From positions 64,001 to 128,000 of the forward strand of contig JBMOPW010000034.1 in NCBI GenBank assembly GCA_049322915.1: a stretch of DNA of 64,000 nt, written 5' to 3'. The position numbers were made by a program, and so were the translations under genes. This stretch comes from Candidatus Zhuqueibacterota bacterium. GTDB taxonomy: Bacteria; Zhuqueibacterota; Zhuqueibacteria; Thermofontimicrobiales; Thermofontimicrobiaceae. Shown in pieces: positions 3,569 through 43,934 of this stretch. Each line of letters begins with the position of its first letter. The stretch's first letter is position 1. Below the pieces are notes generated by a model. That model did not search any database, was not told the DNA's origin, and saw only the letters and a program-made list of their open reading frames with translations.

Positions 3569-6500
3569 ATGAAAGCATACACATGGCAACGCGTTCTCTC
3601 ACTGGTCATTGCCATACATTTTCTGGGACTGTCGTTTGCACATGCCGACATCACATCAAAGCACAGCAATATTTTTACGCTGGATACTCGCGTTCAAAAT
3701 CCCGATCCGGTGGATGGCTGGCAGATCGTGACAAACCAGGGCAACACCTACAATGAAGATATCATCATCGATGACGTCGGCAAGGTATGGTGCTTTTATT
3801 TGAGAAACATCGGCCCGAACCCGCCAGTGTACATGAAGATTTTCACTTCGACAGGGTATATTTACAAGCACGAAACGGTTGTGGGGCATGCATCGCCTTT
3901 TACCTACTTCGTGCAGAATTCAATACGCGCCGCGCTCAATTCCGAGACTGGCGATGTCTGGGTGGCATTGGAGGGTAATTCCGGCGGTTATTTTGTCCGT
4001 TACGACTCCACCGGTGAGGTGGTTCAGGATTCCACGTTGCTCGCCGAAGAGTCTCATCTGCCCAAGATTATTGAAGGGACCGATGGTCAAATGTGGTTTT
4101 CGTGGCACACTTTCGCTAATGGCGGAGCCGAAAGTTTTGGGAAAATCGCAGCCTATTCTAACAGTGGCGCTCTTGCAATTCGACCCATATTTGTGAGTCA
4201 GTTTAATAATGTCTTCAATACAGATATTGCCATGGACGACAGCAATCAGATCTGGGTGGTGCTCGATAGCAATGACAATGGCAATTTCGCCAGCCGGTAC
4301 TGTGTGTTCAATGAGGATTTAGATCTCATCATCGCCGGCAATGTGATCAGCAATAATCCAATTCCATTGAACCCGCAGCGCCAGATTCTGGCTGACCGCA
4401 TCAATGGAAGGGTCTGGATTCTGGCCAAAAATGATACCACGCAAAAACAGAAACTCAATATGTATGGATTGGATGGTTCTCTTTTGACCAGCATCAACAA
4501 TGTCGGCGAATGCGCCTTTCTGAGAAATGAAACCAACCATCTGGAAGTGATGCGATTCAACAGCTCGGATCCATTGAACAAGCTGTACCAGATCGCCATG
4601 TTCAACGCGCAGGACGGAAGTCTATTTCAGGATTGGACCACTGAATTTGACAGCACCTACAGTTTTGTGAGAAATGGCTTGTCCTACGAGGGTGCTCAGA
4701 ATGGACTCAAAATCTACGCTGTCCATGAGGAAGAAAATTTAACCCGAATAAAATTTTTAGAGGTGACAGCCGGCTTGCCGGAAATTACGATCAGCCCGTC
4801 TTCCGTCAACTTCGATACAACGAAAATTATAAACGGTTACATTAAACATAAAGATATCAAAGTTTCCAATATCGGCAATGCAACTTTGGCGATCACGGAT
4901 ATCAACAATGAACGATCCAATTTCTTCGTGAGCGACACGGTCTTGCAGCTTTCGCCCGGGCAATCAGATAATATCACGGTTTATTTTGACCCGGCGGATA
5001 CGAACGTCCTTTACGACACGCTCATCGTTCACAGCAACTCCGTTCAGAATAATCCATTCGAAGTGGCGCTCGCCGGCAGAGGCTATAATCCCGGCTTCCC
5101 TGATATTTTGGTCAATCCAACAACCCTCGATTTTGACTCACTGGTCGTCAGGAATTCACTGATCAGGTATCTATATGTGTACAATCAGGACGTGTATGAA
5201 CACCTTGTGATTTCCTCGGTGACGTCACAAAGTCCGCACTTTAGCCATAGCACCGATGGCTTCACACTTGGGCCGAAAAGAGGCGAGTATATTGCTGTCA
5301 CGTTTCGGCCAACGTATGCCGGCACTCATCTGGATACTCTTTACATCAGCAGCAATGACCCGGAAAATCCCAATCTGGCAGTTCCGCTTTTTGGAGTAGG
5401 CCTCAGTGGAGAAGAACCGCAGATCGTTGTGGATGTTGATTCACTGTACTTCGGCGAATTGGCGCTGGGACGTGATAAAGTTTTGTATGTTGGCATTGAG
5501 AATGAAGGACAGACCACTCTGACCGTCAGCGAAATCGCTTCCAGTGATTCTCAGTTTACTGCGGAGCCGGCAGAATTCTCCCTGTCGCCGTATTCAAAGC
5601 GATATATTGCAGTAAATTTCCACGCCTACCGTCTTGGCGAAGCGCTTGCAACGCTGACGATTCAAAGCGATGATCTGGAATTTCCAGAATATAACATCAA
5701 ACTTGTTGGGATCGGTAGGGAAGAGTACCCGCCGTCCATTTCGGTTTACAGCGATTCGATCGATTTCGGCATTGTTCCCGTGGGAAATCAGAGTTTAAAA
5801 TACTTCTGGGTCATCAATGAAGGCGAACAAACGCTGGATGTAGAAAGCCTTGTCTCCAGTGACAAACAGTTCATAACCGATCGATCGAGTTTTTCCCTGA
5901 CGCCGGGCGGCGTTCAAATGGTCGCTGTCACTTTTGTTCCGGATGAACCGGGACTGATAAATGCCGAACTGATCCTTTCGAGCAACGATCCTGAAAATAG
6001 CAGAAAATCTGTGACACTCGTTGGGCAGGGGAGAAATTTAACAGAGCCCAATCTGGTTGTCAATGCGCAACAACTCGATTTTGGCGCCGTTGGCATTTCG
6101 CATTCTACGACCAAATACTTCACGGTTTACAATAGCGGCGAACAGACGCTTTCTGTGACGAACATTTATATCAGTGGGGTTCAGGGTAATCCGTACAACG
6201 TTCATCCCGGTTCATTCAATCTTTCGCCGTACCAATATCAGACCATCTATGTCACTTTCACGCCCAACGTGCTCGGCCAACTGAATGGGACGTTGAATAT
6301 CGAAAGTAACGATCCTCCGACCCGAACCGTGAGTCTGGTGGGAACAGGCCGTTTATTGAACGACCCGAACCTGTATGTGGATAAATCGCTTGTCTCTTTC
6401 AGCGAGACCGCCATTACCCGAACGACTAACTCCTACCTCTGGTTCAGCAACACCGGAGAGCAGGAATTGATCGTGGAAACAATGACCCATTCGGACACGA

Positions 6501-9500
6501 GCTTTTCGGTCAATATCGATAATTTTTCTCTCAACCCGGGCCAGAGCCAGTACGTGGTCGTTTCATTCGCTCCGAAACAAGTGGGCGAATATCTGGACAC
6601 GCTGAAAGTTTACAGTAACGATCCTGAAGACCGCCTGAAAAATATTGTACTCCTGGGATCGGGCAGAAATTTGTATTCTCAGAACATTCAAATCTCCAAT
6701 GACAGCCTTGCTTTTGGAGCGGTCCCCATTAATCAGCGCATTACGTACGGCCTGGTCGTTTACAACACAGGGGAACAGGATTTGACCATCAGCAATATTG
6801 GAAACGCTCTTCCTGAATTTCTGGTCGACACGCGCCAGTTCACCGTTTCGTCCAATTCCTATCGCACCCTTTATATCACCTTTGAACCGGACTCGCTAAA
6901 AGATTATAATGATGAATTATCGATTTCAAGCAATGACCCGGAGACGCCCGTCTCAACAGTGAAACTCAGCGGCATTGGAAGGAATTTGCTGGATCAAAAT
7001 CTCGCCACCGCTCCGGATAGTCTGTTCTTCGGCAGTATTGGTGTTGGTTTGAATCACACGATGAGTATCCAGCTTAGAAATATCGGAGAAAAGAATCTGG
7101 TCATTGATAGCATCCGGGTCACTCATCCGATGTTCTCTCTCAGCGGCCAGTCTGCGTTGACATTGTCGCCGGGCGCATCCCAGTGGCTGAATATCACATT
7201 TACTCCAACTGCGGTGGATACGTTCGACGCGGAACTCCATTTGTACAGCGACGACGTCGACTCCTCGGATTTCATTGTCCCGCTTCTTGGCTATGGCCGG
7301 GAATTGACCGGGCCGAATCTCGTCGTTTCTCCTGATGAATTGAATTTTCAGGATGTCCCTGTTCGCGGTATTGAGGAAGTCTTTTTGAGCGTTTACAATT
7401 CTGGCGAACAACATTTGAATATCACCGATATTCAGTCCGGAGATGTTCAATTCGTGCCGGCTCCTACAGAACTCACGTTAAGTCCGGGCGCGTCCCAATT
7501 GGTCAAAGTGACGTTCTCTCCCATGGCGATCGATACATTCGAAACTGAACTGATCTTTTTTAGCAATGACGGCGATAGCAGCGAATTTGAAGTTCCGATG
7601 ACTGGCATCGGTCGCGATTTGAGGGAGCAGAATTACGTCAGCAACGTCAAGTCTGTGGAATTCGGGGAAGTCATGCTTGGACAACGCATCACACGAAGCA
7701 TCACGTTCTCCAATAGCGGCGATCTTCCGCTTGTTCTTTACAATTGCACGACGACCGACACCCATTTTGTCTGCGCAACCGATTCGTTCATCGTCATCGG
7801 CGGCAGTGAGTATGCACTGCAAATAACATTTACACCGAGTGACACGCATTTTGTCCAGGCAGATTTGATTTTCAATACCAACGACCCTGATGTCTATTCA
7901 ACCACCATTCCGCTGCGAGGCTCAGGACAAATGGACACGCAGCAGATCGCTGTTTCGCCGGGCGCACTTTCTTTTGGCGATGTGAGAATTCATACAACGC
8001 GCAGCAGGTCAATTCAGGTGAGTAACTTTGGAGAGAAGACGCTCAATGTTTTCAATATCATTCCGACCGACACGGTTTACTCAACCAGCATTGGCAGTTT
8101 CTCTCTCATTCCCAACGAGACCCGAACTGTGTTCGTTTATTTCACTCCGGACACGATCAGATCTTATCAAGCGCAACTATTGTTTGTGAGCGATGATCCG
8201 GTCACGGATACTTTGGCCGTTATCCTGTATGGCGTTGGCAGAGATTCGCTGAGCGCGGCAATTACAACAAGCACCGACAGTCTGGGATTTGGTGAAGTCG
8301 CGGTGGACTTCTCTCGCTCCATTCACATGACCCTGTACAACTCCGGCGAAAAGACATTGCAGATCAGCAATATCACCACCACAGATTCTGTCTTCTCAGT
8401 CGGTCTGACGAATTTCAATGTCAATCCAAACTCTCAGGCGCTTCTGTTGGTTACATTCACGCCCGAAAGTATCACGAGCTACGCGGATACACTGACCATT
8501 TTCAGCAACGATCCGAACAACGACACGCTGCTGATTGAGCTCACCGGCATTGGCAGAAAGCAAAATGATCAGCATATTGCAGTCTCAGATACCTCGCTCA
8601 ATTTTGGCGTGGTGCCGACCGACCGATCGAGTACGAAAACTTTCTGGGTGTATAATAACGGTGAAAAGACGCTCGACGTCACTCAAATTGCAGTCAGCGA
8701 TTCGCAATACACGGTGAACAAAGAATGGCTACTCATTGCGCCGGGTCAGTATGAATACCTGCAGGTGACCTTCTCGCCAGATTTAGAAGATACAATTAAG
8801 GCCGTGCTGACGCTGACAAGCAATGATCCGGACGAATCTGATAAAACGATTCAACTCTCAGGGATAGGAGAATTGTACACCGGGCCAAGAATTATTGCCC
8901 TGAACAATTCACTGAATTTCGGCAATATGTTGATTGGCGCCACCAAAAAAATGACGTTCCGGGTTAAAAATCTGTCCCTGACTGATACCCTGATCATCAA
9001 TAACCTGACGTCGAATAACAGCAATTTTACCGTTTCAAAAAGTGAAATAAAAGCTCCTCCGATGGATAGCACGTCCATTCAGGTGACATACAAACCGAAT
9101 TCCATTGGCTATCATTCGGCTGCCCTGACGTTGTATTCCAATGATCTGTACCAGGAGCAGTTTAATTTCTGGGTATATGGACAGGGCATTTCCGAAAATG
9201 TCGGCACCAATTATTTAGCAAATCTGGGATGGAAAGTGAATGGGTATTCTCCATTCGGTCAGTATTTCAGCCCCAATCCGTATACAGATGACGTCCTGAG
9301 CGGTAGTGACATCCTGAACGATCCTAATGGCCGAGCCGACCGTGCCTGGTTCGTGAAAGATGTCTTCATTTATGACAATCCGGATACTGCGATTTTGAAT
9401 ATTTGCTATGATGATCAAATTTTTCTCTATGTCAATGGCACGTATGTTTACAATGACACCTCGGCCACGCCGCTCCACTGGAACATCGCTGATTTGAATG

Positions 9501-12034
9501 TCAAACCCTATCTGAAATTGGGCCGAAATCGGATAGCTATTTCCGTGTGGAATGAGTATAAAATTGGTGACTTCTTTTACGGCGGCTTCGATTGTGAATT
9601 CGTCGTGGATGGTGAAGCGAAAATCAGGCGCGGCGACCAGAACTGGACGCACCCGGATGCAACCTGGTGGTATTTTGGGGAGAACGGTGATTTTGAAACC
9701 AAGCCGGTTGACACAATTAACAATCGTCTATGGTTTTATGGCGAATACGGCCTGTCCGAAATCGATTCTGTCACGGCCAACTGGTCGTTCGAGCCGATTG
9801 TAGGCGATACGCTGTATGATGACACCCCGTACGGACAGGTTGCCATTCTGCACAACATAGCATGGATACAGGGGATCTCCGGTTCGTCCATGCGATTCAG
9901 CGGGGCCTATGACTCGTATGTTGAATTGCGGACCAATCTGAATACAGTTCCGCAGTCCATTGAGCTGTGGTTCAATTGCTACGGGCTTCGTTCCGGGTAC
10001 CAGAACATCATTACCAACAAAGGGAGCGGCTCCTTTGGCCATGGCTTATTCATCAATGAAACCGGCCTACTGGGCGTGTATTATTACGATGGTGAATTTC
10101 TGACCGACTACCTGGTTCAATTGAATACCTGGTTGTTCGTTTCCACGCAGTACTCCAATGATCGAATCAGGGTTTATATCAATAACACGCTCGTCGGGGA
10201 GTATGACATCACTGAGGATGAGGCAGGAAATCCCACCGGAGGAAATTACTGCTATCTTGGAGGCAATCCCCTGGGGGCTGATACAACGGCATTCAACGGC
10301 GCTATCGATGAATTGGTGATTAAAAACTCGGCATTTGCGCCATCGCCGATGCAAGCGGTCGCGACAATTTCAGTTTCAGAGCCGGACTCCGTGGTCAAAT
10401 TGAAAGAGTTGCAATTATCGTTCAATGTGTTCCCCAGCCCGTTTAAGCTGATCAGCGGAACCCTGGAATATGCAAAGGGCGGAAGCCAGAATTACCATTC
10501 AGTGACAGTGCCTGCGTCCGATTCGCTCGTTTCACCGGTCATCGTCAGTATTCCCGCCGACTCGATGACCATTCGGGGATTGAAGTACAGAATCTACCTC
10601 ACGACGAATTATGGGTCGGTTTATTTCCCACAAACCGGCGAGGGCGAAGAATATTTCTCCTGGATCAATGTCAGGACCAGCGGCGAGAATTCAACAGTGA
10701 CAATTCCTGAAAAGATATATAAGATGGTTTCTGTCCCGTACGAAGCGGACAGCCAATCGGTGTTTTCTGTGCTTGCCGATGATTTGAAAGAATACAATCC
10801 ATATTTCTGGCGATTGTTCGAATGGGATCATGAAGATACCCAGTATGTTGAATTCGGCGATACGCTCTGGCAATCCGGCCGAGGATTTGAACGCGGAAAA
10901 TCCTACTGGTTAATCTCAACCCGCGCTCTCAGTTTCGATGCCGGCTCAGGACATTCACCATCTGAGACGCATTATCGAATACAGCTAACCCCGGGCTGGA
11001 ACATGATTTCCAATCCATTCCCGTATTCTGTGAGCTGGCTCTCTGTTCTGAAATCGTCAGAGGGCATCGCCGATCCGGTTTATTGGGCTGCCGATGACAC
11101 AATTCGCTGGATTTACAATGTGGAGGAATTGGCGCCGTGGGCTGGTTATTTTCTCTGGAACGGAGACGCCAGCACGCGAAGTATTCTGATTCCGCCTCTG
11201 GAGTCGAGTGAAGTGCCTTTGAAAAAGCCGCTTTCGCTGGCAGATCGATACGAGGAAAAATATGGACAAATCTCAGTTTTGATCGCTGCAGAAGCGCGGT
11301 GCGGAAGATTTGTCGATATAGACAACCTGTTCGGCATCGCTGAAAACGCGAACAACGAACTGGATAGCTACGATATGAAGGAGGCGCCGGCTATTGGCAA
11401 TTTCGTGTCCCTGTTCATCGATAATAAGTCGTGGTCAGAGCAGGGGGGAGCTTACACTGTGGATATCCGAAAGCAGGATGGCGCCGGACAATGCTGGCCA
11501 GTCACGCTTTTATATACACTGGAAAGTCCGCCCAATAACATGTCCCTCTCATTGAAACCAATAACGGCGTTGCCTGAAGATTGGTCGATGTATCTTTTTG
11601 ACCTGTCAAATGATTTAGCCGTGAATATCGGTGAAGAGAAAAGCCTTGCTTTCAAGCCGGTGGCCAAACAACCGACGAAGAAAAATTATAAATTGATTGT
11701 TGGTACCCGGGAGTTCATCGAAAGCAATTCGGACGGGATACCGCTGGTTCCGCTCAAGTTTGAATTGTTCCAGAATTATCCTAACCCGTTCAATGCAGCG
11801 ACGACCATCAGTTTTAATCTCCCGGAACGAATGAAAGCGACTGTGAAAATCTACAATGTGCTGGGGCAACTTGTAAAGACTGTTGTAGACGATGCGGAGA
11901 TGCGTGGCGGGCATCAAACGCTCATTTGGGACGGAAAGAACGAGCATGGTAATTTGGTCACAACAGGCCTGTACCTGGTTCGTTTGGAGACCAAAAAGGA
12001 CATCGCCATTAAGAAGCTACTCTTAATCAAGTAA
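3569..12034 (+). CDS. Giant secreted surface protein (2821 aa): N-terminal propeller-like region, 14 choice-of-anchor-D/ASH-type Ig-like repeats, LamG-like domain, T9SS type A/FlgD-like C-terminal domain
   Basis: Fourteen ~100-aa repeats (P-x-I...L-x-FG...N-x-G...L-x-I...F-x-P...SNDP...L-x-G-x-G) at about 4778-9190. LamG motifs IELWF and FNGAIDE. C-terminal QNYPNPFN...WDGKN...KKLLLIK. Confidence 0.88.
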   Translation: MKAYTWQRVLSLVIAIHFLGLSFAHADITSKHSNIFTLDTRVQNPDPVDGWQIVTNQGNTYNEDIIIDDVGKVWCFYLRNIGPNPPVYMKIFTSTGYIYKHETVVGHASPFTYFVQNSIRAALNSETGDVWVALEGNSGGYFVRYDSTGEVVQDSTLLAEESHLPKIIEGTDGQMWFSWHTFANGGAESFGKIAAYSNSGALAIRPIFVSQFNNVFNTDIAMDDSNQIWVVLDSNDNGNFASRYCVFNEDLDLIIAGNVISNNPIPLNPQRQILADRINGRVWILAKNDTTQKQKLNMYGLDGSLLTSINNVGECAFLRNETNHLEVMRFNSSDPLNKLYQIAMFNAQDGSLFQDWTTEFDSTYSFVRNGLSYEGAQNGLKIYAVHEEENLTRIKFLEVTAGLPEITISPSSVNFDTTKIINGYIKHKDIKVSNIGNATLAITDINNERSNFFVSDTVLQLSPGQSDNITVYFDPADTNVLYDTLIVHSNSVQNNPFEVALAGRGYNPGFPDILVNPTTLDFDSLVVRNSLIRYLYVYNQDVYEHLVISSVTSQSPHFSHSTDGFTLGPKRGEYIAVTFRPTYAGTHLDTLYISSNDPENPNLAVPLFGVGLSGEEPQIVVDVDSLYFGELALGRDKVLYVGIENEGQTTLTVSEIASSDSQFTAEPAEFSLSPYSKRYIAVNFHAYRLGEALATLTIQSDDLEFPEYNIKLVGIGREEYPPSISVYSDSIDFGIVPVGNQSLKYFWVINEGEQTLDVESLVSSDKQFITDRSSFSLTPGGVQMVAVTFVPDEPGLINAELILSSNDPENSRKSVTLVGQGRNLTEPNLVVNAQQLDFGAVGISHSTTKYFTVYNSGEQTLSVTNIYISGVQGNPYNVHPGSFNLSPYQYQTIYVTFTPNVLGQLNGTLNIESNDPPTRTVSLVGTGRLLNDPNLYVDKSLVSFSETAITRTTNSYLWFSNTGEQELIVETMTHSDTSFSVNIDNFSLNPGQSQYVVVSFAPKQVGEYLDTLKVYSNDPEDRLKNIVLLGSGRNLYSQNIQISNDSLAFGAVPINQRITYGLVVYNTGEQDLTISNIGNALPEFLVDTRQFTVSSNSYRTLYITFEPDSLKDYNDELSISSNDPETPVSTVKLSGIGRNLLDQNLATAPDSLFFGSIGVGLNHTMSIQLRNIGEKNLVIDSIRVTHPMFSLSGQSALTLSPGASQWLNITFTPTAVDTFDAELHLYSDDVDSSDFIVPLLGYGRELTGPNLVVSPDELNFQDVPVRGIEEVFLSVYNSGEQHLNITDIQSGDVQFVPAPTELTLSPGASQLVKVTFSPMAIDTFETELIFFSNDGDSSEFEVPMTGIGRDLREQNYVSNVKSVEFGEVMLGQRITRSITFSNSGDLPLVLYNCTTTDTHFVCATDSFIVIGGSEYALQITFTPSDTHFVQADLIFNTNDPDVYSTTIPLRGSGQMDTQQIAVSPGALSFGDVRIHTTRSRSIQVSNFGEKTLNVFNIIPTDTVYSTSIGSFSLIPNETRTVFVYFTPDTIRSYQAQLLFVSDDPVTDTLAVILYGVGRDSLSAAITTSTDSLGFGEVAVDFSRSIHMTLYNSGEKTLQISNITTTDSVFSVGLTNFNVNPNSQALLLVTFTPESITSYADTLTIFSNDPNNDTLLIELTGIGRKQNDQHIAVSDTSLNFGVVPTDRSSTKTFWVYNNGEKTLDVTQIAVSDSQYTVNKEWLLIAPGQYEYLQVTFSPDLEDTIKAVLTLTSNDPDESDKTIQLSGIGELYTGPRIIALNNSLNFGNMLIGATKKMTFRVKNLSLTDTLIINNLTSNNSNFTVSKSEIKAPPMDSTSIQVTYKPNSIGYHSAALTLYSNDLYQEQFNFWVYGQGISENVGTNYLANLGWKVNGYSPFGQYFSPNPYTDDVLSGSDILNDPNGRADRAWFVKDVFIYDNPDTAILNICYDDQIFLYVNGTYVYNDTSATPLHWNIADLNVKPYLKLGRNRIAISVWNEYKIGDFFYGGFDCEFVVDGEAKIRRGDQNWTHPDATWWYFGENGDFETKPVDTINNRLWFYGEYGLSEIDSVTANWSFEPIVGDTLYDDTPYGQVAILHNIAWIQGISGSSMRFSGAYDSYVELRTNLNTVPQSIELWFNCYGLRSGYQNIITNKGSGSFGHGLFINETGLLGVYYYDGEFLTDYLVQLNTWLFVSTQYSNDRIRVYINNTLVGEYDITEDEAGNPTGGNYCYLGGNPLGADTTAFNGAIDELVIKNSAFAPSPMQAVATISVSEPDSVVKLKELQLSFNVFPSPFKLISGTLEYAKGGSQNYHSVTVPASDSLVSPVIVSIPADSMTIRGLKYRIYLTTNYGSVYFPQTGEGEEYFSWINVRTSGENSTVTIPEKIYKMVSVPYEADSQSVFSVLADDLKEYNPYFWRLFEWDHEDTQYVEFGDTLWQSGRGFERGKSYWLISTRALSFDAGSGHSPSETHYRIQLTPGWNMISNPFPYSVSWLSVLKSSEGIADPVYWAADDTIRWIYNVEELAPWAGYFLWNGDASTRSILIPPLESSEVPLKKPLSLADRYEEKYGQISVLIAAEARCGRFVDIDNLFGIAENANNELDSYDMKEAPAIGNFVSLFIDNKSWSEQGGAYTVDIRKQDGAGQCWPVTLLYTLESPPNNMSLSLKPITALPEDWSMYLFDLSNDLAVNIGEEKSLAFKPVAKQPTKKNYKLIVGTREFIESNSDGIPLVPLKFELFQNYPNPFNAATTISFNLPERMKATVKIYNVLGQLVKTVVDDAEMRGGHQTLIWDGKNEHGNLVTTGLYLVRLETKKDIAIKKLLLIK

Positions 12035-13185: not shown

Positions 13186-13211
13186 TCTGATTAACTTACA
13201 TGGATCATGCG

Positions 13212-13895
13212 ATGAAAAAAATTTTCATTCTGTCGTTACCCTTGTTTCTCTTTATCTCTTTAATTTCGTTTTCTCATGCAACTGAAAAAACAATCGCTCT
13301 TCTTGATTTTTCAAATAATTCTCTTTTCGATAAAGAGAAATATTCCTCATTGTCACCTGGTTTGGCTGAAATTATGATCACCGAACTCAGCAAAATAAAA
13401 GCATTCAAATTGGTGGAGAGAAAAAAAATCAACGCACTGATTGAGGAGATGCAACTTTCGCAGAGTGGTTTGATTTCCGAGGAAAGCAATATTCAGGTCG
13501 GAAAATTACTGGGAGCACAATATCTCGTCTTTGGCAGTTACATGGTTAATTCAAAAGATAAGGTGCGAATCGATGTGCGTATTGTCGAGGTGGAAACAGG
13601 CTTGACAATTAAGGCCGAGGAAGTGACGGACAAACTCGATAAAATATTCGATATCATTAAAAAGCTCAATGATAAAATTATAAAAGACCTGGACATCAAA
13701 TTATCAAGCGCAGAACGGCAGACCTTAGACGAGGGAAGTGCTTCATTAGAAGTGATTGCCTATTTTTCCCAGGGAATAGCATTTGAAGAGAAAAAAGAAT
13801 TCGAAAAAGCAAAACAGATGTACATCAAGGCATTGAAAAGTGATCAAAGTTATGAGCCAGCAAAGACGCGCCTGAAAGAACTGATGCAGAAATAA
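13212..13895 (+). CDS. Secreted CsgG/HfaB/FlgO-like protein with a C-terminal TPR
   Basis: IALLDF...GLAEIMITEL...LVERKKINALIEEM...VGKLLGAQYLVFGS...RIVEVETG. Paralogous to the central domain of 961-2334. Confidence 0.82.
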   Translation: MKKIFILSLPLFLFISLISFSHATEKTIALLDFSNNSLFDKEKYSSLSPGLAEIMITELSKIKAFKLVERKKINALIEEMQLSQSGLISEESNIQVGKLLGAQYLVFGSYMVNSKDKVRIDVRIVEVETGLTIKAEEVTDKLDKIFDIIKKLNDKIIKDLDIKLSSAERQTLDEGSASLEVIAYFSQGIAFEEKKEFEKAKQMYIKALKSDQSYEPAKTRLKELMQK

Positions 13896-37212: not shown

Positions 37213-39621
37213 TTGAATATGTCTCCGTCCTCCTCTGAATTCTGGTGGCTGTTCGTTCTGGGCAATATTGCCCTGTTGGCTCTCGTATTCGGTTTCATCA
37301 CAATTATATTTCATAACCAGCGCAAGTTTCAGAAAGATCAGCAGGAAAAGCTGGAACAATTAAAACAGAGTGAAGAGAAGTACAGCAATCTTTTCAATCA
37401 TGTCACGGATATTGTTTTTATCCATTCGCTCGATGGACATATTGTGCAGATCAACAATGCAGTGCGTGACTTGCTCGGGTACGACCCGCGCCAGCTCATC
37501 GGCCTGTCGCTGAATGAAATCATTGCCCCGCAATTTCCATTCGATCTGAAAGGCTATATCAGTGAAATCACTGAGACCGGCTTTTCGCACGGGCACATTC
37601 ATTTTAAATCGACAATGGGCAGCGTTCTCATTTTCGAATTCAGAAACACGGTTGTTTTCCGCGATGGTTCCCCAATTGCAATCCGCGGCATTGCCAGGAA
37701 TGTGACCGAGCATATTAAGGCTGAATTGAAATTAAAAACAAGCGAAGAACGCTATCGAAATCTGTTTCAACATTCCATCGCCAGCATTGTGCTGCTGGAC
37801 AGGGATTTGAATTTCATTGACGCAAATAAGGCTGCCATCGAGCTTCTGGGCTATCAGCGACAGGAGTTATTGGCGTTGAATTTTCAGCATATCATCCTGA
37901 ACCGGGAGAGCTTTACCTCGCTCTTTGGAAATTTGAAACAATCCGGCAACCTGGTCAATTTGGAACTGCTGCTGAAGAAACGCAATGGATCGAGGATTTG
38001 GGCGCTGAGCAATGCCACGTGGATTGAGGATAGCCCGAGCCAGCAGATCGGCATTCTCTTCACTATCTTCGATATTACATCCCGTCGACAGGCTGAGCAA
38101 TTGCTGGCAGAAGAAAAAGAGCGTCTGGCTGTTACGCTGCGGAGCATTGGCGACGCCATTGTGACGACCAATACGCTGGGCGAAATTTTGCTGTTCAATC
38201 ACGCCGCTGAAAAATTATGCCAGATCAGCAGTCTTGAAATCAACGGTAAATTCTTTGAAGAAGTCTTTCAAATCGTGGATGAACAAACCAATGAACGGTG
38301 CGCCTCTCCGGTGGAGGAAGTGCTCAAAGCGGGACAGATTGTCCAACACTTGAAGAATCGTATTTTAATCACAAAGGACAACAGTCAGAAATACATTTCC
38401 TACAGCAGCGCTCCGATCAAGGATAAAGAGGACCAGACTCTCGGCGTTGTTCTGGCGATTCGGGACGTGACTGAGAAAATCAAGCTGGAAGAAGAAGTGT
38501 TAAAAATGCGCAAACTGGAATCGGTGGGAATTTTAGCCGGTGGGCTCGCGCACGATTTCAACAACATTCTGACGGCGATTGTCGGAAATCTGTTCCTGGC
38601 CAAAATGTCGCTGTGCAATGAGAATACGGAAACCATCTCATTGCTGGACGACGTGGAAAAGGCGACTCTCCAGGCTAAAAAACTGACGCAGCAATTGCTA
38701 ACGTTCTCGCGGGGCGGAGCGCCCATCAAGAAGACTGAAGCAATCCACGATCTCATTCGCGATTCGATAAATTTCACGTTACGGGGTTCCAATGTCCGCT
38801 GTGAGTATTTCATCAGTGATGATCTCTGGCCTGTTTTTGGGGACACAGGTCAGATCAATCAGGTGCTGAACAATTTAGTGATGAATTCGGATCAGGCCAT
38901 GCCCGAAGGCGGCATCCTGGAAGTGCATGCGATAAATGCTGTACTCGCTGAAAAATCAGCGCTGCCGCTTAAGCCCGGGCGGTACATCAAAATTACAATC
39001 AAGGATACCGGGATTGGAATTCCAGCGGAATACCTTCCGAAAATATTTGATCCTTATTTTTCCACAAAAAAAGCCGGCAATGGCCTCGGCCTGGCCACGG
39101 TGTATTCCATCATTTCCAAACATGATGGTTATATCACAGTTGAATCAAAAATCGGAAAAGGGACATCAGTGATTTTCTATCTCCCGGCGTCAATGCAAAA
39201 AATTGCTCCTCTGAATAGCCCTCAAATAACGCTGCAGCAAGGCAAGGGTAGAATTTTACTGATGGATGACGAACTGGGCATTCGGGAAGCCACCGGCAAA
39301 ATTCTGAAAAAATTTGGTTATGATGTTGATTTTGCCTGTGAAGGCAGCGAAGCGCTGGAGAAATACCAGCGCGCCATCGAAACACGCCACCCTTTTGATT
39401 TGGTGATTCTGGATTTGACCATCCCCGGCGGAATGGGCGGATTGGAAACAATCAAAGAATTGCTGAAGCGGGATCAGGGTGCAAAGGCGATTGTGTCCAG
39501 CGGCTATTCATCCGACCCGGTAATGGCCAATTTCAAACAATATGGCTTTTGTGAATTTATTGCCAAGCCTTATAATCTCAATGAGCTGCGCACCAAACTC
39601 TACAAAGTGATGAACAATTAA
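37213..39621 (+). CDS. Membrane-anchored hybrid histidine kinase (3 PAS, HisKA, HATPase, REC)
   Basis: One TM; AHDFNNILT H-box; DTGIGI, FSTK, GLGL; receiver LMDDE...DLTIPGG...KPY. Confidence 0.93.
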   Translation: MNMSPSSSEFWWLFVLGNIALLALVFGFITIIFHNQRKFQKDQQEKLEQLKQSEEKYSNLFNHVTDIVFIHSLDGHIVQINNAVRDLLGYDPRQLIGLSLNEIIAPQFPFDLKGYISEITETGFSHGHIHFKSTMGSVLIFEFRNTVVFRDGSPIAIRGIARNVTEHIKAELKLKTSEERYRNLFQHSIASIVLLDRDLNFIDANKAAIELLGYQRQELLALNFQHIILNRESFTSLFGNLKQSGNLVNLELLLKKRNGSRIWALSNATWIEDSPSQQIGILFTIFDITSRRQAEQLLAEEKERLAVTLRSIGDAIVTTNTLGEILLFNHAAEKLCQISSLEINGKFFEEVFQIVDEQTNERCASPVEEVLKAGQIVQHLKNRILITKDNSQKYISYSSAPIKDKEDQTLGVVLAIRDVTEKIKLEEEVLKMRKLESVGILAGGLAHDFNNILTAIVGNLFLAKMSLCNENTETISLLDDVEKATLQAKKLTQQLLTFSRGGAPIKKTEAIHDLIRDSINFTLRGSNVRCEYFISDDLWPVFGDTGQINQVLNNLVMNSDQAMPEGGILEVHAINAVLAEKSALPLKPGRYIKITIKDTGIGIPAEYLPKIFDPYFSTKKAGNGLGLATVYSIISKHDGYITVESKIGKGTSVIFYLPASMQKIAPLNSPQITLQQGKGRILLMDDELGIREATGKILKKFGYDVDFACEGSEALEKYQRAIETRHPFDLVILDLTIPGGMGGLETIKELLKRDQGAKAIVSSGYSSDPVMANFKQYGFCEFIAKPYNLNELRTKLYKVMNN

Positions 39622-39719
39622 TACTTCTTGATTTTTCAAATATTTTTTTTTATCTTACTCCCCAAAAATCAATGCCTCTTGTTTAGCCTTTTTTTTTCGA
39701 AGAATTGGATGGTAGAAAG

Positions 39720-41096
39720 ATGACTGAAGAAACACATGTAAGCGATGATGAGATCGTGCCTCATCAGGCTAAGGCTGGAGAAGTCACGTCCCGATTCCCC
39801 GGTTTTTACAAGCTTGAACTCTCGACCCGCCTCGATATGTTAGATCAATGGTATCCCCTGACGACAAAAGAAAAATGGAAATTAAAACGTGAGACGCTCA
39901 CACCCGAACTCGCTGATGTGATGGTCGAAAATGCCATTGGTGTTTTTGGATTACCTCTGGGCGTTGCCGTGAATATAAAATTGAATAACAAAGACTACGT
40001 CATGCCAATGGCAGTGGAGGAATCATCGGTCATTGCCGCTGCGAGCAACTCCGCCCGGCTCATTCGCGATCATGGTAAATTGACGGCTGAGGCAACGGAC
40101 CCAATCATGTTCAGCCAGATTCAGGTTGTGAATGTCAGGAACCCGAAGCGGGCCATCGCGAAAGTGCTTGAAAAGAAAGCAATGCTTTTAAAAGTGGCCA
40201 ACCAACAGGATCCTGAGTTGGTCCGTCTCGGCGGCGGCGCAAAAGACATCGACGCACGCGTGATTGATTCGCTCAGCGGTCCCATGGTGATCATGCATAT
40301 TTACGTCAATTGCGTCGATGCCATGGGCGCCAACGCTGTCAATACAATGGCCGAAGCCCTGGGGCCGATCATCGCCGACCTGGTGAATGGCGAAGTCATT
40401 TGTCAGATTGTCTCCAACCTGTCCGATCATCGTCGGGTGAAAGTGCGCATGGAACTGGAAACAAGCTGTCTGGCGCGCTCCGGATTCTCCGGTGAAGAGG
40501 CTGCGGATCGAATTATAAAAGCCTATCATTTCGCGGAGGCTGATCCGTATCGGGCGGCCACGCATAACAAAGGCGTCATGAATGGCATCGACGGCATTGT
40601 CATTGCGACAGGCAATGACTGGCGAGCATGCGAAGCCGGCGTTCATGCGTACGCTGCGCGGTCGGGCAGTTACAAGCCGGTCAGCCAATATTTCATGGAT
40701 GAATCCGGCAAATTAATCGGCGAGATGGAAATACCCATGTCCGTCGGCATTGTCGGCGGCGTCACCTCCATTCATCCCGGTGTAAAAATCCTGCTGAAAT
40801 TAATGAAAGTCAATACCGCGAAAGAGCTTTCCGAAGTCATCGCGGCGGCTGGCTTGATTCAAAATTTTTCCGCCATCTGGACGCTGGCGACGGAAGGCAT
40901 CCAGAAAGGCCACATGACCCTGCATGCGAGAAATGTGGCTGTGTTTGCCGGCGCCATCGGTGAAATGGCCATAAAGGTTGCCAATCAAATGGCGCACGAA
41001 GGTCGCGTCCGCTACGACCGCGCCAAACAGATATTAAAACACCTGCTCGTCCGGGAAATTGAGGAGAACGGCAGCAAACAGTCGGACGATGAATAA
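39720..41096 (+). CDS. mvaA: HMG-CoA reductase, class II
   Basis: ENAIG, EESSVIAA, DAMGAN, THNKG, GIQKGHMTLHA. Confidence 0.95.
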   Translation: MTEETHVSDDEIVPHQAKAGEVTSRFPGFYKLELSTRLDMLDQWYPLTTKEKWKLKRETLTPELADVMVENAIGVFGLPLGVAVNIKLNNKDYVMPMAVEESSVIAAASNSARLIRDHGKLTAEATDPIMFSQIQVVNVRNPKRAIAKVLEKKAMLLKVANQQDPELVRLGGGAKDIDARVIDSLSGPMVIMHIYVNCVDAMGANAVNTMAEALGPIIADLVNGEVICQIVSNLSDHRRVKVRMELETSCLARSGFSGEEAADRIIKAYHFAEADPYRAATHNKGVMNGIDGIVIATGNDWRACEAGVHAYAARSGSYKPVSQYFMDESGKLIGEMEIPMSVGIVGGVTSIHPGVKILLKLMKVNTAKELSEVIAAAGLIQNFSAIWTLATEGIQKGHMTLHARNVAVFAGAIGEMAIKVANQMAHEGRVRYDRAKQILKHLLVREIEENGSKQSDDE

Positions 41097-42039
41097 TATG
41101 ATCTCCACATGCGCGACTGCTGCGGCAAAACTCATTCTATTCGGGGAACACGCTGTCGTTTATGACCAGCCGGCCATTGCCATCCCGCTTCTCGATGTGC
41201 GGGCTTCCGCCGCTATTTCCATCGATTTATCTTCGGCCACACCCGTCATCGAGGCAAAGGATTTGCGCATGACTCTGCCGATTACAGAGGCCAGACAGCC
41301 TTCGTTGCAGCACATCGTCAATGCGATTGAATTGTTCGAAGCGAGAGCCATGCCGCTGCCGGCTACCGGCTGGCGTCTGACAGTGTGGTCGAAAATTCCC
41401 TTCTCGCGGGGATTGGGCAGTAGCGCCGCCATTAGCATTGCGATTCTCCGCGCGTTATCCGCTTCGCAGAAAATCCACTTCTCGTCCGAGCAGTTCATTG
41501 AGCTGTCTTTTGAACTGGAAAAATTTCATCATGGCACTCCGAGTGGCCTGGACAATACGGTGATTGCAGTGGAACGTCCCATCATTTTTCGAAAAGGCCA
41601 GCCGCCGCAAAACATCGAGCCAAAGAGCTTCACGTTCGTCGTTGGAGATACGGGCGTCGGTAAAAAGACATCGGACGTCGTGAGTTTTGTGGCAGCTAAT
41701 TATCACAGCAACCCGGGTCATGCTGGAAAAATCTTCAGTGAAATTGGCGCGATCGCCCTTGCCGGACGTGAATGCCTGGAACAGGGCAAGTTGAAAAAAC
41801 TCGGCGAACTCATGACGAAAAATCAGGACTTGCTCAGCGAACTGGAGGTGTCGTCTCCTGAATTGGATACGCTGATTGGCGCTGCAAAAAATGCCGGCGC
41901 ACTTGGCGCGAAACTATGTGGTGCAGGCAAAGGCGGATGTATGGTCGCGTTGACGGAAGATACAAAATCGGCAGAGACCGTTTCCCGGGCGCTCCTCCAG
42001 GCCGGCGCCCTGAAAACTTTCATCACTCGTTTGAAATAA
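41089..42039 (+). CDS. mvk: Mevalonate kinase
   Basis: KLILFGEHAVVY, PFSRGLGSSAA, HGTPSGLD, GAKLCGAGKGG. Confidence 0.93.
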   Translation: MNNMISTCATAAAKLILFGEHAVVYDQPAIAIPLLDVRASAAISIDLSSATPVIEAKDLRMTLPITEARQPSLQHIVNAIELFEARAMPLPATGWRLTVWSKIPFSRGLGSSAAISIAILRALSASQKIHFSSEQFIELSFELEKFHHGTPSGLDNTVIAVERPIIFRKGQPPQNIEPKSFTFVVGDTGVGKKTSDVVSFVAANYHSNPGHAGKIFSEIGAIALAGRECLEQGKLKKLGELMTKNQDLLSELEVSSPELDTLIGAAKNAGALGAKLCGAGKGGCMVALTEDTKSAETVSRALLQAGALKTFITRLK

Positions 42040-42051
42040 GGGGATATCGCC

Positions 42052-42657
42052 GTGAACAATTGTTTGGTGGCCATCACCGGCGCTTCCGGCGCCATCATCG
42101 GCATTCGTCTGATTGAAGAATTGCTGAAGAACCGCATCGATGTCATTGCCATCATTTCCAAAAACGGAAGAAACGTCCTTCATGCTGAACTAGGCGCTGA
42201 TTTCCCGCTTCCAGCCAATGTCCACTACTTTTCGGAAGGCGATGAAAATTCGCCATTCAACAGCAGTTCATTTGTCCTGGACGCAATGGTTGTCGCACCC
42301 TGCTCCATGAAAACTTTGGCTGGAATTGCGAACGGCTTTTCTTTCAACTTGATTGTGCGCGCTGCCGAGATTCAATTGAGGACAAATCGACCGCTCATTT
42401 TGTCCCCGCGAGAGACACCGCTTTCCGCACCCAATCTCAAAAATATGCTGGATGTGAAAAACGCCGGCGCATTGATTTGTCCGCCCATGGCTGCTTACTA
42501 TCATCGACCCGCATCTGTGGATGACATGACCAATTTTTTTGTGGGTAAAATTCTGGACTTGCTGGGAATTCCCAATACACTGTACCAGCGATGGCAGAAC
42601 AAACAGCCAGGTTCTATCATTCGCACCGATGACCCGCCGAAAAACCAGGAGCAATAA
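42052..42657 (+). CDS. ubiX: Flavin prenyltransferase UbiX
   Basis: ITGASG, PCSMKTL, PRETPL, YYHRP. Confidence 0.93.
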   Translation: MNNCLVAITGASGAIIGIRLIEELLKNRIDVIAIISKNGRNVLHAELGADFPLPANVHYFSEGDENSPFNSSSFVLDAMVVAPCSMKTLAGIANGFSFNLIVRAAEIQLRTNRPLILSPRETPLSAPNLKNMLDVKNAGALICPPMAAYYHRPASVDDMTNFFVGKILDLLGIPNTLYQRWQNKQPGSIIRTDDPPKNQEQ

Positions 42658-43934
42658 TGGACTTTCGAACCTGCATTGACAACGAACGAATTCAGAACAA
42701 TGTGATCGTCTGTGAGGACGCGCTCTCTCCGCATCTGGAGTTGACCAAAAAGATCATTGAACTTGAACCATCGCCGGCGCTGCTCAGCGGAGTTGGCGCT
42801 ATTCCAGTGGCTGCGAATCTGTTTTGCTCCCGAAATTCGATGGCGCGGCATTTGGATTTACCGCAGGATACATTTCTTCCGTCGTTAGCCCGGAAATTGA
42901 AAAGCGATCCAATTCATATACATAACTCCGGCTCGATCTTCGGCGAGCGCGAGTGGCCGGCGATTGATTTGAATGACCTCCCCATTCTGTTTCACTATCC
43001 GGGAGACGGTGGAAAATATATCACGTCCGCGGTCTGGATTGTCAATGATGCACAATCAGGAAGGAATTTGTCCTATCATCGCATGATGGTGATTGATGGG
43101 CGGCGCGGCGCTGTGCGCGTTGTAGAAAATCGTGGGATGCATCAGGCGATTCACCATGCCGGCGGACGCGCTTCTGTTGCCATCTGTCTGGGAGCACCGC
43201 CAGCCGTTCTGCTTGCGGCGGCCCTCTCCCCTGCTGCTTCAGTCGATGAAATGGAATTGGCTGGAAAATTGGATGCCATCACGCTGGCAGATTGCAAAAC
43301 AATCGACGTGCAGGTACCGGCCAACTGCGAAATAGTCATCGAAGGAATTTTCACCGGCGAGAGCGGCAATGAGGGGCCGTTTGTCGACATCACAGGGACC
43401 TGGGATTATATTCGAAACCAGCCCTTGCTGGAGGTGACGCGCATTGCTTCCCGCCAAAATCCAATCTATCATGCTCTCGTTCCTGGAAGAAGCGAGCATA
43501 AAACGCTCATGGGCATGCCCAAAGAACTGGATATTTTCAACAAAGTGAATGAAGTCTGTGCGTGTCTTGATGTGAACATGACGGCTGGCGGCTGCTCGTG
43601 GCTCCATGCTGTAGTGAAAATCCGGAAAGAACATGGCGATGACGGGCTCAATAGTCTAAGAGCGGCTTTTGAAGCCCATCCATCTTTGAAGTACTGCGTC
43701 GTTGTCGACGAAGACATCGACATTCACGCCACGGAACAGGTGGAATGGGCTGTTGCCACTCGGTTTCAGGCGGATAAAGATTTACTGGTGATGAGCGATA
43801 TGCCGTCAAGCTCGCTCGATCCGTCGGCGTATCATATTCCAGGAAAGAAAAGCCGGGGCGCAAAACTGGGACTGGACGCGACAATTAAAAAGAGCGGGGC
43901 CGAGCGCGCGATGTTCGAGCGGGTGAGGCTATAA
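42657..43934 (+). CDS. UbiD-family prFMN decarboxylase, probable anhydromevalonate phosphate decarboxylase
   Basis: NLSYHR, EGPFVDITGT, AFEAHPSLK, VDEDID, SSLDPS. Short 425-aa form in an operon with mvaA, mvk and ubiX. Confidence 0.85.
   Translation: MDFRTCIDNERIQNNVIVCEDALSPHLELTKKIIELEPSPALLSGVGAIPVAANLFCSRNSMARHLDLPQDTFLPSLARKLKSDPIHIHNSGSIFGEREWPAIDLNDLPILFHYPGDGGKYITSAVWIVNDAQSGRNLSYHRMMVIDGRRGAVRVVENRGMHQAIHHAGGRASVAICLGAPPAVLLAAALSPAASVDEMELAGKLDAITLADCKTIDVQVPANCEIVIEGIFTGESGNEGPFVDITGTWDYIRNQPLLEVTRIASRQNPIYHALVPGRSEHKTLMGMPKELDIFNKVNEVCACLDVNMTAGGCSWLHAVVKIRKEHGDDGLNSLRAAFEAHPSLKYCVVVDEDIDIHATEQVEWAVATRFQADKDLLVMSDMPSSSLDPSAYHIPGKKSRGAKLGLDATIKKSGAERAMFERVRL

Follow-up and report, generated by a model that had tools for sequence, protein, structure and literature searches.

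The window operon and the remaining pathway genes

The window analysed here is a stretch of 64,000 nucleotides (G000:C34:64001-128000, from contig JBMOPW010000034.1) in the genome G000 of a Candidatus Zhuqueibacterota (KSB1) bacterium, whose assembly of 6.25 Mb consists of 45 contigs and is rated 96% complete. On its + strand, four co-directional and tightly packed open reading frames (ORFs) at 39705-43934 encode 3-hydroxy-3-methylglutaryl-CoA reductase (HMGR), mevalonate kinase (MVK), a UbiX-family protein and a UbiD-family protein. It is highly probable that a mevalonate pathway of archaeal type (via trans-anhydromevalonate 5-phosphate) has its first half encoded by these genes, a pathway which this bacterium would hold in addition to the methylerythritol phosphate (MEP) route. 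Functions are read throughout from gene content, gene order and phylogeny. The features of the region are as follows.

39720..41096, + strand: class II HMG-CoA reductase (longest ORF from TTG 39705, likely ATG 39720)
41098..42039, + strand: mevalonate kinase (longest ORF from TTG 41059, likely ATG 41098)
42052..42657, + strand: UbiX-family flavin prenyltransferase (TIGR00421, PF02441)
42657..43934, + strand: UbiD-family decarboxylase (TIGR00148 and three Pfam UbiD domains)
39549..39576, + strand: promoter-like site TTGTGA-16-TATAAT (consensus match only)

The mvaA-mvk-ubiX-ubiD operon of abutting or overlapping genes that the original prediction described was borne out by these ORFs and by their profile scores. 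HMGR matched PF00368 with 335 bits and TIGR00532 with 407 bits (cut-off 260), and is 59-62% identical to the HMGR heading a seven-gene operon in two Elusimicrobiota loci. MVK, whose likely ATG lies two bases past the HMGR stop, reached 242 bits on TIGR00549 (cut-off 163) and is the sole GHMP kinase of G000 above the MVK cut-off. UbiX starts 12 bases past the MVK stop and scored 145 bits on PF02441 and 196 bits on TIGR00421 (cut-off 109); it is inferred to be the maker of the prenylated flavin mononucleotide (prFMN) cofactor for UbiD. The UbiD gene has one base in common with the UbiX stop, and its product scored 324 bits on TIGR00148 (cut-off 245), with PF20695, PF01977 and PF20696 above their cut-offs and covering the whole length. 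The two motifs quoted in the original prediction are present in its translation, EGPFVDITGT at residues 239-248 and AHPSLK at residues 340-345. A whole-genome search found no other UbiD-family gene in G000, and the UbiX-UbiD pair is kept in six relatives of the same order and in 11 of the 80 loci fetched for comparison (see below). The window was also predicted to lack phosphomevalonate kinase (PMK) as well as diphosphomevalonate decarboxylase (MVD), which agrees with a Pfam scan of its complete set of 35 non-overlapping ORFs with 120 aa or more: GHMP-kinase domains were found in MVK only, and the MVD domain in none.

The remaining genes were found elsewhere in the genome. Contig C2 carries a second operon, in which the genes of AcnX large (410 aa; PF04412, 474 bits), AcnX small (142 aa; PF01989, 115 bits) and isopentenyl phosphate kinase (IPK, 263 aa; NF040647, 184 bits, cut-off 120) are adjacent, with IPK directly 3' of AcnX small. 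AcnX large scored 347 bits against the Thermococcus phosphomevalonate dehydratase structure 7cnr and 206 bits against a bacterial hydroxyproline dehydratase, while on the hydroxyproline dehydratase model it obtained 287 bits where 700 are needed. The cysteines of its TCTPY, GCPHASL and D(T/S)C motifs are conserved, as judged by alignment to the Thermococcus enzyme. According to passages of PMC10040528, the [4Fe-4S] ligands of the Aeropyrum phosphomevalonate dehydratase are Cys122, Cys297 and Cys356, and the phosphomevalonate dehydratases among the AcnX enzymes are type IIb only. The best solved relatives of the IPK are the isopentenyl phosphate kinases 3k4o and 3ll9. In the original prediction, an unknown dehydratase or a variant pathway was to be considered if AcnX were missing; since AcnX large and small are both present on C2, this idea falls away.

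For the upper half of the pathway, an archaeal-type trio of HMG-CoA synthase (HMGS), thiolase and a DUF35 protein lies at G000:C34:537704-540450, 434 kb downstream of the window operon. With TIGR00748, the model for archaeal enzymes, HMGS obtained 548 bits (cut-off 353), and the thiolase scored 545 bits on NF004720 (cut-off 420); the DUF35 protein of 129 aa matched PF01796 and PF12172 (zinc ribbon and OB fold). Isopentenyl diphosphate isomerase (IDI) of type 1 is encoded on contig C20 (135 bits, cut-off 106), and IDI type 2 gave no real match in G000 (20 bits against a cut-off of 281). With these genes, the predicted set for the trans-anhydromevalonate-phosphate pathway is complete in G000.

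What was observed is that the genes are present, to which families they belong, how they are ordered and how far they are conserved; the enzymatic steps that they would encode can be proposed as follows. The thiolase/HMGS/DUF35 trio would convert acetyl-CoA to HMG-CoA, which the window HMGR would reduce to mevalonate and the window MVK would turn into mevalonate 5-phosphate. The two-subunit AcnX phosphomevalonate dehydratase would then remove water to give trans-anhydromevalonate 5-phosphate, and the window UbiD, with prFMN supplied by the adjacent UbiX, would decarboxylate this compound to isopentenyl phosphate. Finally, IPK, encoded beside AcnX, would produce isopentenyl diphosphate (IPP), and IDI type 1 would isomerize it to dimethylallyl diphosphate (DMAPP).

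The surroundings of the AcnX operon were also recorded. An arylamine N-acetyltransferase-like gene (PF00797) lies directly 5' of AcnX large on the same strand, with selD beyond it (L003:10314-12315, C2). Matches to MAD3 (449 bits, cut-off 420) and MAD4 (195 bits, cut-off 160), which are proteins of a methylation-associated defence system, were found at L003:13701-15562, 3.5 kb from the operon.

Gene order and phylogeny of UbiD

The proteins closest to the window UbiD are 56-72% identical to it and several are labelled candidate division KSB1, three of these being identical to the UbiDs of G133, G136 and G137 from the window's own order, which speaks for the assignment of G000 to KSB1/Zhuqueibacterota. 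Lower identities were seen for relatives from Elusimicrobia (48-53%), from Planctomycetota (51%), from a Thermoplasmata archaeon (48%) and from Anaerolineae (45%). One homologue, P0008 (616 aa), is a natural UbiX-UbiD fusion with PF02441 and three UbiD domains, 63% identical to the window UbiD over its full length. The nearest ESM Atlas clusters are automatically named anhydromevalonate phosphate decarboxylase (AMPD) with a score of 0.98, which serves as a lead only.

Species-representative genomes were scanned with an alignment of 12 UbiD-clade members, and the loci of the best 80 of 585 confirmed relatives were fetched; their ORFs were searched with the pathway proteins of G000, and a UbiD gene was called linked when another pathway gene lay within 6 kb. 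Such a neighbour was present in 62 of the 80 loci (AcnX large in 53, AcnX small in 51, MVK in 34, IPK in 28, UbiX in 11 and HMGR in 4), and about half of the 18 loci lacking one are shortened by contig ends. Where UbiD is the immediate neighbour of AcnX, IPK or MVK, as in Bathyarchaeia, Anaerolineae, Elusimicrobiota and Planctomycetia, it is 45-53% identical to that of the window. The genes are arranged as MVK-UbiD-AcnXL-AcnXS-IPK in Bathyarchaeia (in 17-24 of 25 loci), as UbiX-UbiD-AcnXL-AcnXS-IPK in Anaerolineae (Chloroflexota), and as DUF35-thiolase-HMGS divergent from HMGR-MVK-UbiD-AcnXL-AcnXS-IPK in a Planctomycetia locus. In two Elusimicrobiota loci, HMGR-MVK-UbiX-UbiD-AcnXL-AcnXS-IPK form a single string, of which the window operon is the first half and the C2 operon the second half.

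Public records with doubtful labels sit among the 80 loci. L071 is a 4.8-kb contig titled Candidatus Acidoferrum sp. that has the Bathyarchaeia gene order, nests in the Bathyarchaeia clade and is probably mis-binned. L046, titled 'uncultured Cytophagia bacterium', has a UbiD identical to that of G132 from the window's order, and its label looks wrong.

Two UbiD trees were built, both from sets lacking the characterised AMPDs of Aeropyrum, Methanosarcina and Ca. Promineifilum. The quick tree has 106 rows (74 of the 80 loci, eight KSB1 relatives, the window, 22 database proteins and E. coli UbiD), the six loci left out having no UbiD ORF that covers at least 90% of the query. For the careful tree, 60 rows were hand-picked, without E. 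coli UbiD, the long-branched L084, L071, L108 or a large number of near-duplicates; the five unnamed proteins P0002, P0056, P0098, P0111 and P0113 were given their groups from similarity or from where they had fallen in the quick tree. Rooting by E. coli UbiD was given up, as its branch measures 7.45 changes per site in the quick tree and the root is not trusted. In both trees the KSB1, Elusimicrobiota and Planctomycetota sequences form one clade with 100/100 support inside the AcnX-linked clade, and within it those of Elusimicrobiota and Planctomycetota group together (100/100, both trees). The window UbiD lies inside a clade whose members, archaeal as well as bacterial, show synteny with AcnX, IPK or MVK. 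The statement of the original prediction that the few bacterial cases described are mainly from Chloroflexota holds in part: a Chloroflexota clade was recovered, but Elusimicrobiota and Planctomycetota also carry members of the larger clade.

The Chloroflexota UbiDs form this separate clade (99/92) beside a Halobacteriota sequence (93/83). Independent transfers to Chloroflexota and to the KSB1 clade were considered, since archaeal rows split the two in the careful tree, but by the approximately unbiased (AU) test a topology with all bacterial rows together, which differs by 2.2 in log-likelihood, is not rejected (p-AU 0.156). What we claim is therefore a distinct clade and not a separate transfer from archaea; the sequences point to a second bacterial UbiD clade, for which neither a number of transfers nor a donor is claimed. 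Within KSB1, the UbiDs follow the split into families, with family f1 as one group (100/92), which fits inheritance since the ancestor of families f1 and f3.

As for the surroundings of the window operon, a histidine kinase of the hybrid type, containing three PAS domains as well as a receiver domain, is encoded at 37213-39621 (+) and ends 83-98 bases before the HMGR start. The promoter-like site matches the consensus at 10 of 12 positions and lies about 140 nt 5' of the HMGR start, within the 3' end of the histidine-kinase ORF; the region has 13 such sites compared with a mean of 4.5 in shuffles. No terminator was predicted 3' of UbiD on the + strand. The genes 3' of the operon, on the opposite strand, are PEGA, BamB-like and Omp85/TolB-like, and the window is otherwise core chromosome, with thrS, infC, rny, folD, nadC, a UvrD-family helicase, leuS and prs. 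A further ORF at 3569-12034 (+) encodes 2821 aa of ASH/HYDIN/Cep192-type Ig-like repeats and DUF1573, flanked by an FGE-sulfatase-domain gene before it and a CsgG-like gene (13200-13895) after it. A recent transfer was looked for in the base composition and rejected: the pathway loci have GC contents of 0.52-0.55 against a genome mean of 0.488, corresponding to the 76th to 96th percentile of 4-kb windows of G000, and none is an outlier.

The MEP route and rival explanations

Several points weigh against an archaeal-type pathway serving this bacterium. The AcnX and IPK genes are on contig C2, separate from contig C34 of the window operon. Orthology of the window UbiD to characterised AMPDs would rest on synteny, and its best solved relative is the furandicarboxylate decarboxylase HmfF (6h6v, 205 bits), because no AMPD entry appeared. 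Of the seven MEP genes, all but ispF were searched for, and G000 holds these six above their cut-offs, namely dxs (828 bits), dxr (505), ispD (242), ispE (244), ispG (436) and ispH (221); judged by these genes, the mevalonate route would not be needed for basic isoprenoid supply. Finally, G000 encodes a divergent MVD-family protein. Aligned with S. aureus MVD, it retains the motifs of the catalytic Ser, Arg and Asp regions, and it could open another path by which mevalonate 5-phosphate is turned into isopentenyl phosphate.

Because the MEP genes are held, G000 does not rely on the archaeal route alone. The claim that this lineage makes isoprenoids by the archaeal route thus stands as far as the UbiD/UbiX-dependent operon and the full gene set are concerned, and fails as an exclusive statement. 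G000 is best described as a putative dual-pathway genome, in which the archaeal-type pathway would add to MEP and not replace it.

G000 has six GHMP-kinase genes (MVK, IspE and four sugar kinases assigned by score or neighbours), and no PMK was found among them. Two weakly MVK-like members, on C45 and C30, were set aside as sugar kinases by their neighbours (arabinofuranosidase and sugar dehydrogenase; GalU). The animal-type PMK family PF04275 had no match in G000, but its control was also silent, so this result is uninformative. The MVD model gave one match in G000, at 121.6 bits and so under the cut-off of 171.35. According to the original prediction, canonical PMK and MVD in the genome, together with a UbiD grouping with aromatic-acid or menaquinone decarboxylases, would have spoken against the archaeal-type reading; G000 has no PMK among its GHMP kinases, and its MVD match is under the cut-off.

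Since the MVD-family protein behind this match keeps the aligned Ser, Arg and Asp motifs (the GLGTSAS, GSGSRS and STDTGP stretches, aligned with S. aureus MVD), a second lower route is possible and was carried as a rival. In that case mevalonate 5-phosphate would be converted to isopentenyl phosphate by this decarboxylase of contig C36, as in the haloarchaeal/Chloroflexota-type pathway, with AcnX and UbiD being redundant or acting on another substrate. The protein of 397 aa is best matched by the phosphomevalonate decarboxylase model NF040704, its gene shares a carotenoid cluster with a second HMGR, IPK could be used by both routes, and other carriers of the order also have an MVD-family protein (26-32% identity). 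Its scores, however, are far under the curated cut-offs (192 bits vs 475 for NF040704, and 164 vs 560 and 121 vs 171 for the others), and its orthologue is found only in the sister genome G124 (72% identity), the other 10 matches being 28-32% identical. Moreover, such a route leaves unexplained why UbiX-UbiD stands between MVK and AcnX in the seven-gene operons, and why MVK-UbiX-UbiD is conserved across the order. We regard it as improbable in place of the AcnX/UbiD route, although the two are not mutually exclusive.

The carotenoid cluster itself (G000:C36:159706-176200, loci L018 and L028) lies outside the window. On one strand it contains, in order, a lycopene cyclase domain protein, CrtD, CrtI and CrtB, further on a CrtI-like oxidase and an RPE65-type carotenoid oxygenase, and then the second class II HMGR (385 bits), followed by a TonB-dependent receptor, a CruF-like protein and, last, the MVD-like gene. 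The second HMGR in this cluster would resemble a use of the extra pathway for secondary isoprenoids.

In another reading, UbiX-UbiD would decarboxylate aromatic or heteroaromatic acids, in the manner of HmfF, VdcC or UbiD, and its place beside mevalonate genes would be incidental. HmfF as the best solved structure is consistent with it, as are the JGI label '2,5-furandicarboxylate decarboxylase 1' on many close homologues and an NCBIfam name that gives the generic UbiD family only. Nevertheless, the window UbiD scored far below the cut-offs of the specific models, with 162 vs 650 bits for VdcC, 150 vs 496 for menaquinone decarboxylase, 124 vs 788 for UbiD, and 62-69 vs more than 468 for the phenylphosphate carboxylase subunits. 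It is the only UbiD of its genome, the Pfam scan of the window ORFs found no furan or aromatic catabolic gene among its neighbours, and the 62 of 80 loci in which UbiD is linked to AcnX, IPK or MVK extend over archaea and four bacterial phyla, all of which makes this reading very unlikely. The idea that the operon is catabolic and oxidises mevalonate as a carbon source, suggested by the best NCBIfam model of HMGR being named 'hydroxymethylglutaryl-CoA reductase, degradative', is hardly credible either, as 'degradative' is a general label of class II enzymes, the mevalonate kinase next in the operon would commit mevalonate to biosynthesis, and G000 encodes HMGS/thiolase/DUF35, IPK and IDI.

Distribution of the two routes in the phylum

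The archaeal-type pathway was then followed through 167 species genomes of the phylum, 21 of which make up the window's order (families f1, f2 and f3); these genomes are related and are metagenome bins, so that the numbers below are counts only and the relatives are not independent. The window-type UbiD was found in 9 of the 167 genomes and an orthologue of AcnX large in 11 (56-100% identity), while five further genomes have an AcnX of another kind (35-36% identical). All carriers fall within the one order, where they belong to families f1 and f3, while f2 has none. The string HMGR-MVK-UbiX-UbiD is unbroken in six other genomes of the order (G124, G126, G130, G133, G135 and G136) and broken by contig ends in G125, G131 and G134, and UbiD lies elsewhere in G132. 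AcnXL-AcnXS-IPK is a separate operon in all 11 carriers.

HMGR-family genes are distributed more widely, in 62 of the 167 genomes, including open frames of 701-763 aa. In three scanned cases, these are HMGR-MVK fusions of 745-753 aa (L131:163-2400 in G120, L135:163-2403 in G121 and L140:1414-3675 in G129); the three genomes lack UbiD and AcnX, and in G120 and G129 an MVD-family gene is nearby on the same contig. Lengths of 701-763 aa suggest that G003, G004, G006 and G007 have the same fusion. Other mevalonate variants would therefore exist in the phylum, and only the AcnX/UbiD lower half is confined to the window's order. HMGR homologues of about 350 aa, starting near profile position 40, are common in f10 and f11 genomes that have ispH and lack UbiD and AcnX; in four of these homologues, an in-frame stop interrupts the match.

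The MEP route shows a different distribution. The ispH gene was found in 149 of the 167 genomes, two of which (G158 and G162) are unpublished: it is present in 140 of the 146 genomes that do not belong to the order, and in 9 of the 21 that do. Within the order, it is present in two of the 11 carriers (G000 and G124, its congener) vs seven of the 10 non-carriers, the other nine carriers being without it. Searches for dxr, ispD, ispG and ispH found none of them in any of the five genomes of family f3 (74-96% complete), and gaps would hardly explain why the same four genes are absent from every one of the five. Outside the window's genus, the f1 carriers keep dxr and ispD, with ispH not found; G130, G131 and G132 (90-95% complete) also keep ispG, and in G126 (85% complete) neither ispG nor ispH was found. 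Likewise, dxr, ispD and ispG are present and ispH was not found in G125 (91%; HMGR-MVK-UbiX at a contig end) and G129 (82%; fusion form). In G125 and G129-G132, the MEP route may be truncated at 4-hydroxy-3-methylbut-2-enyl diphosphate, or a divergent IspH may escape the model. Outside the phylum, ispH was found in one of six carriers checked, a Planctomycetia genome, and not in two Elusimicrobiota and three Chloroflexota, whose completeness is not given.

The window's genus (G000 and G124) seems to represent a stage at which the two routes are still present side by side. We slightly favour a pathway replacement caught part-way, in which the order would have gained the archaeal-type module, most closely related to those of Elusimicrobiota and Planctomycetota, before losing the ancestral MEP route stepwise, G000 being a living intermediate. 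The original prediction had pointed to the archaeal-type operon; the coexistence with MEP and the graded MEP loss in relatives go beyond it.

Searches for the MEP genes and for geranylgeranylglyceryl phosphate (GGGP) synthase both gave results, the MEP genes as described and a GGGP synthase homologue (230 bits, cut-off 162) that lies beside alaS, apart from the pathway genes. Judged by this homologue, the one ether-lipid gene searched for, a link to archaeal-type ether lipids was rejected, as it occurs in 18 of the 21 genomes of the order, including MEP-only ones. It is present whichever isoprenoid route a genome has, and nothing in these data has a bearing on the bacterial-archaeal lipid divide.

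Comparison with known systems

G000 represents a further case of a known archaeal-type pathway, in a phylum for which we found no report of it. In the literature searched, the pathway was not found reported in KSB1, Elusimicrobiota or Planctomycetota, and the primary papers on Aeropyrum and Promineifilum, which the search did not cover, may list more bacterial homologues. Joining 'anhydromevalonate' with Planctomycet* returned a figure-legend mention only, and joining mevalonate with Elusimicrobia and UbiD returned none. The main text of the description of Zhuqueibacterota has no mevalonate, isoprenoid, carotenoid, terpen* or lipid, while its Table S9 includes orthogroups of MVK, HMGCS, idi, ubiD and ispH that were gained or lost, with generic names from KEGG and without comment.

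The present data extend the archaeal-type pathway to a second bacterial clade of KSB1, Elusimicrobiota and Planctomycetota, in which compact seven-gene operons could in principle transfer between genomes as a unit. The order shows a graded series, from MEP only, through both routes (G000) and MEP minus its last enzyme, to no MEP genes found, which makes it testable how one essential pathway displaces another. If the part-way replacement is true, G000 would be a natural test bed for running both routes in one cell, and also for the supply of prFMN once MEP is gone, as prFMN itself needs a prenyl phosphate. For engineering, the order offers bacterial versions of an ATP-saving pathway, from moderate-GC organisms that would already run it beside MEP.

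The archaeal (trans-anhydromevalonate phosphate) pathway was reportedly described in Aeropyrum pernix by Hayakawa et al. 2018, and Kanno et al. 2024 (Appl Environ Microbiol) are said to have described a mevalonate pathway of archaeal type in Candidatus Promineifilum breve, a member of the Chloroflexota. Accounts of the archaeal mevalonate pathway are given in parts of PMC10040528, PMC8184944, PMC11052028 and PMC12547664. In these excerpts it is conserved in most archaea, one abstract calling it unique to archaea, and occurs among bacteria in some Chloroflexota; a passage of PMC13001223 likewise places the archaeal-type pathway in some Chloroflexota, citing Kanno 2024 and Dellas 2013. Its ATP use is put at two thirds of that of other mevalonate routes in a passage of PMC12547664, and part of PMC11052028 treats AcnX and AMPD as archaeal markers.

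Like the pathway of Aeropyrum pernix and Methanosarcina mazei, that predicted for G000 comprises MVK, a two-subunit AcnX, a UbiD-family decarboxylase with its UbiX partner, and IPK, and its upper half is also archaeal-type, with HMGS, thiolase and DUF35. The Bathyarchaeia string MVK-UbiD-AcnXL-AcnXS-IPK is the same as that of G000, which is cut in two. The differences are that the host is a diderm bacterium, with BamB- and Omp85-like genes next door, HMGR is class II, IDI is type 1, MEP is kept and the genes are spread over three loci.

Like Ca. Promineifilum breve, as far as the passages on it go, G000 is a bacterium with an AcnX/UbiD-type lower pathway, but it belongs to another phylum, and the window UbiD falls outside the Chloroflexota clade, with those of Elusimicrobiota and Planctomycetota. 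Furthermore, the three Chloroflexota carriers checked are without ispH, whereas G000 has it. The haloarchaeal/Chloroflexota-type modified pathway, as outlined in part of PMC11052028, consists of MVK, phosphomevalonate decarboxylase and IPK. The pathway of G000 would also end in isopentenyl phosphate and IPK, and for the MVD-family protein of this genome phosphomevalonate decarboxylase is the best-matching model; it differs in that this protein is far below the cut-off and encoded in a carotenoid cluster, and that the conserved partners of MVK are UbiX and UbiD.

With regard to dual routes, a passage of PMC13001223 reports both MEP and mevalonate routes in 2.42% of 4,249 bacterial species, with Streptomyces, Listeria and Mycobacterium marinum as dual-route bacteria. 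G000 resembles these in having a complete-looking MEP route beside a complete-looking mevalonate route. Unlike them, with the classical PMK/MVD lower half given for them in the same source passage, G000 has a lower half of archaeal type.

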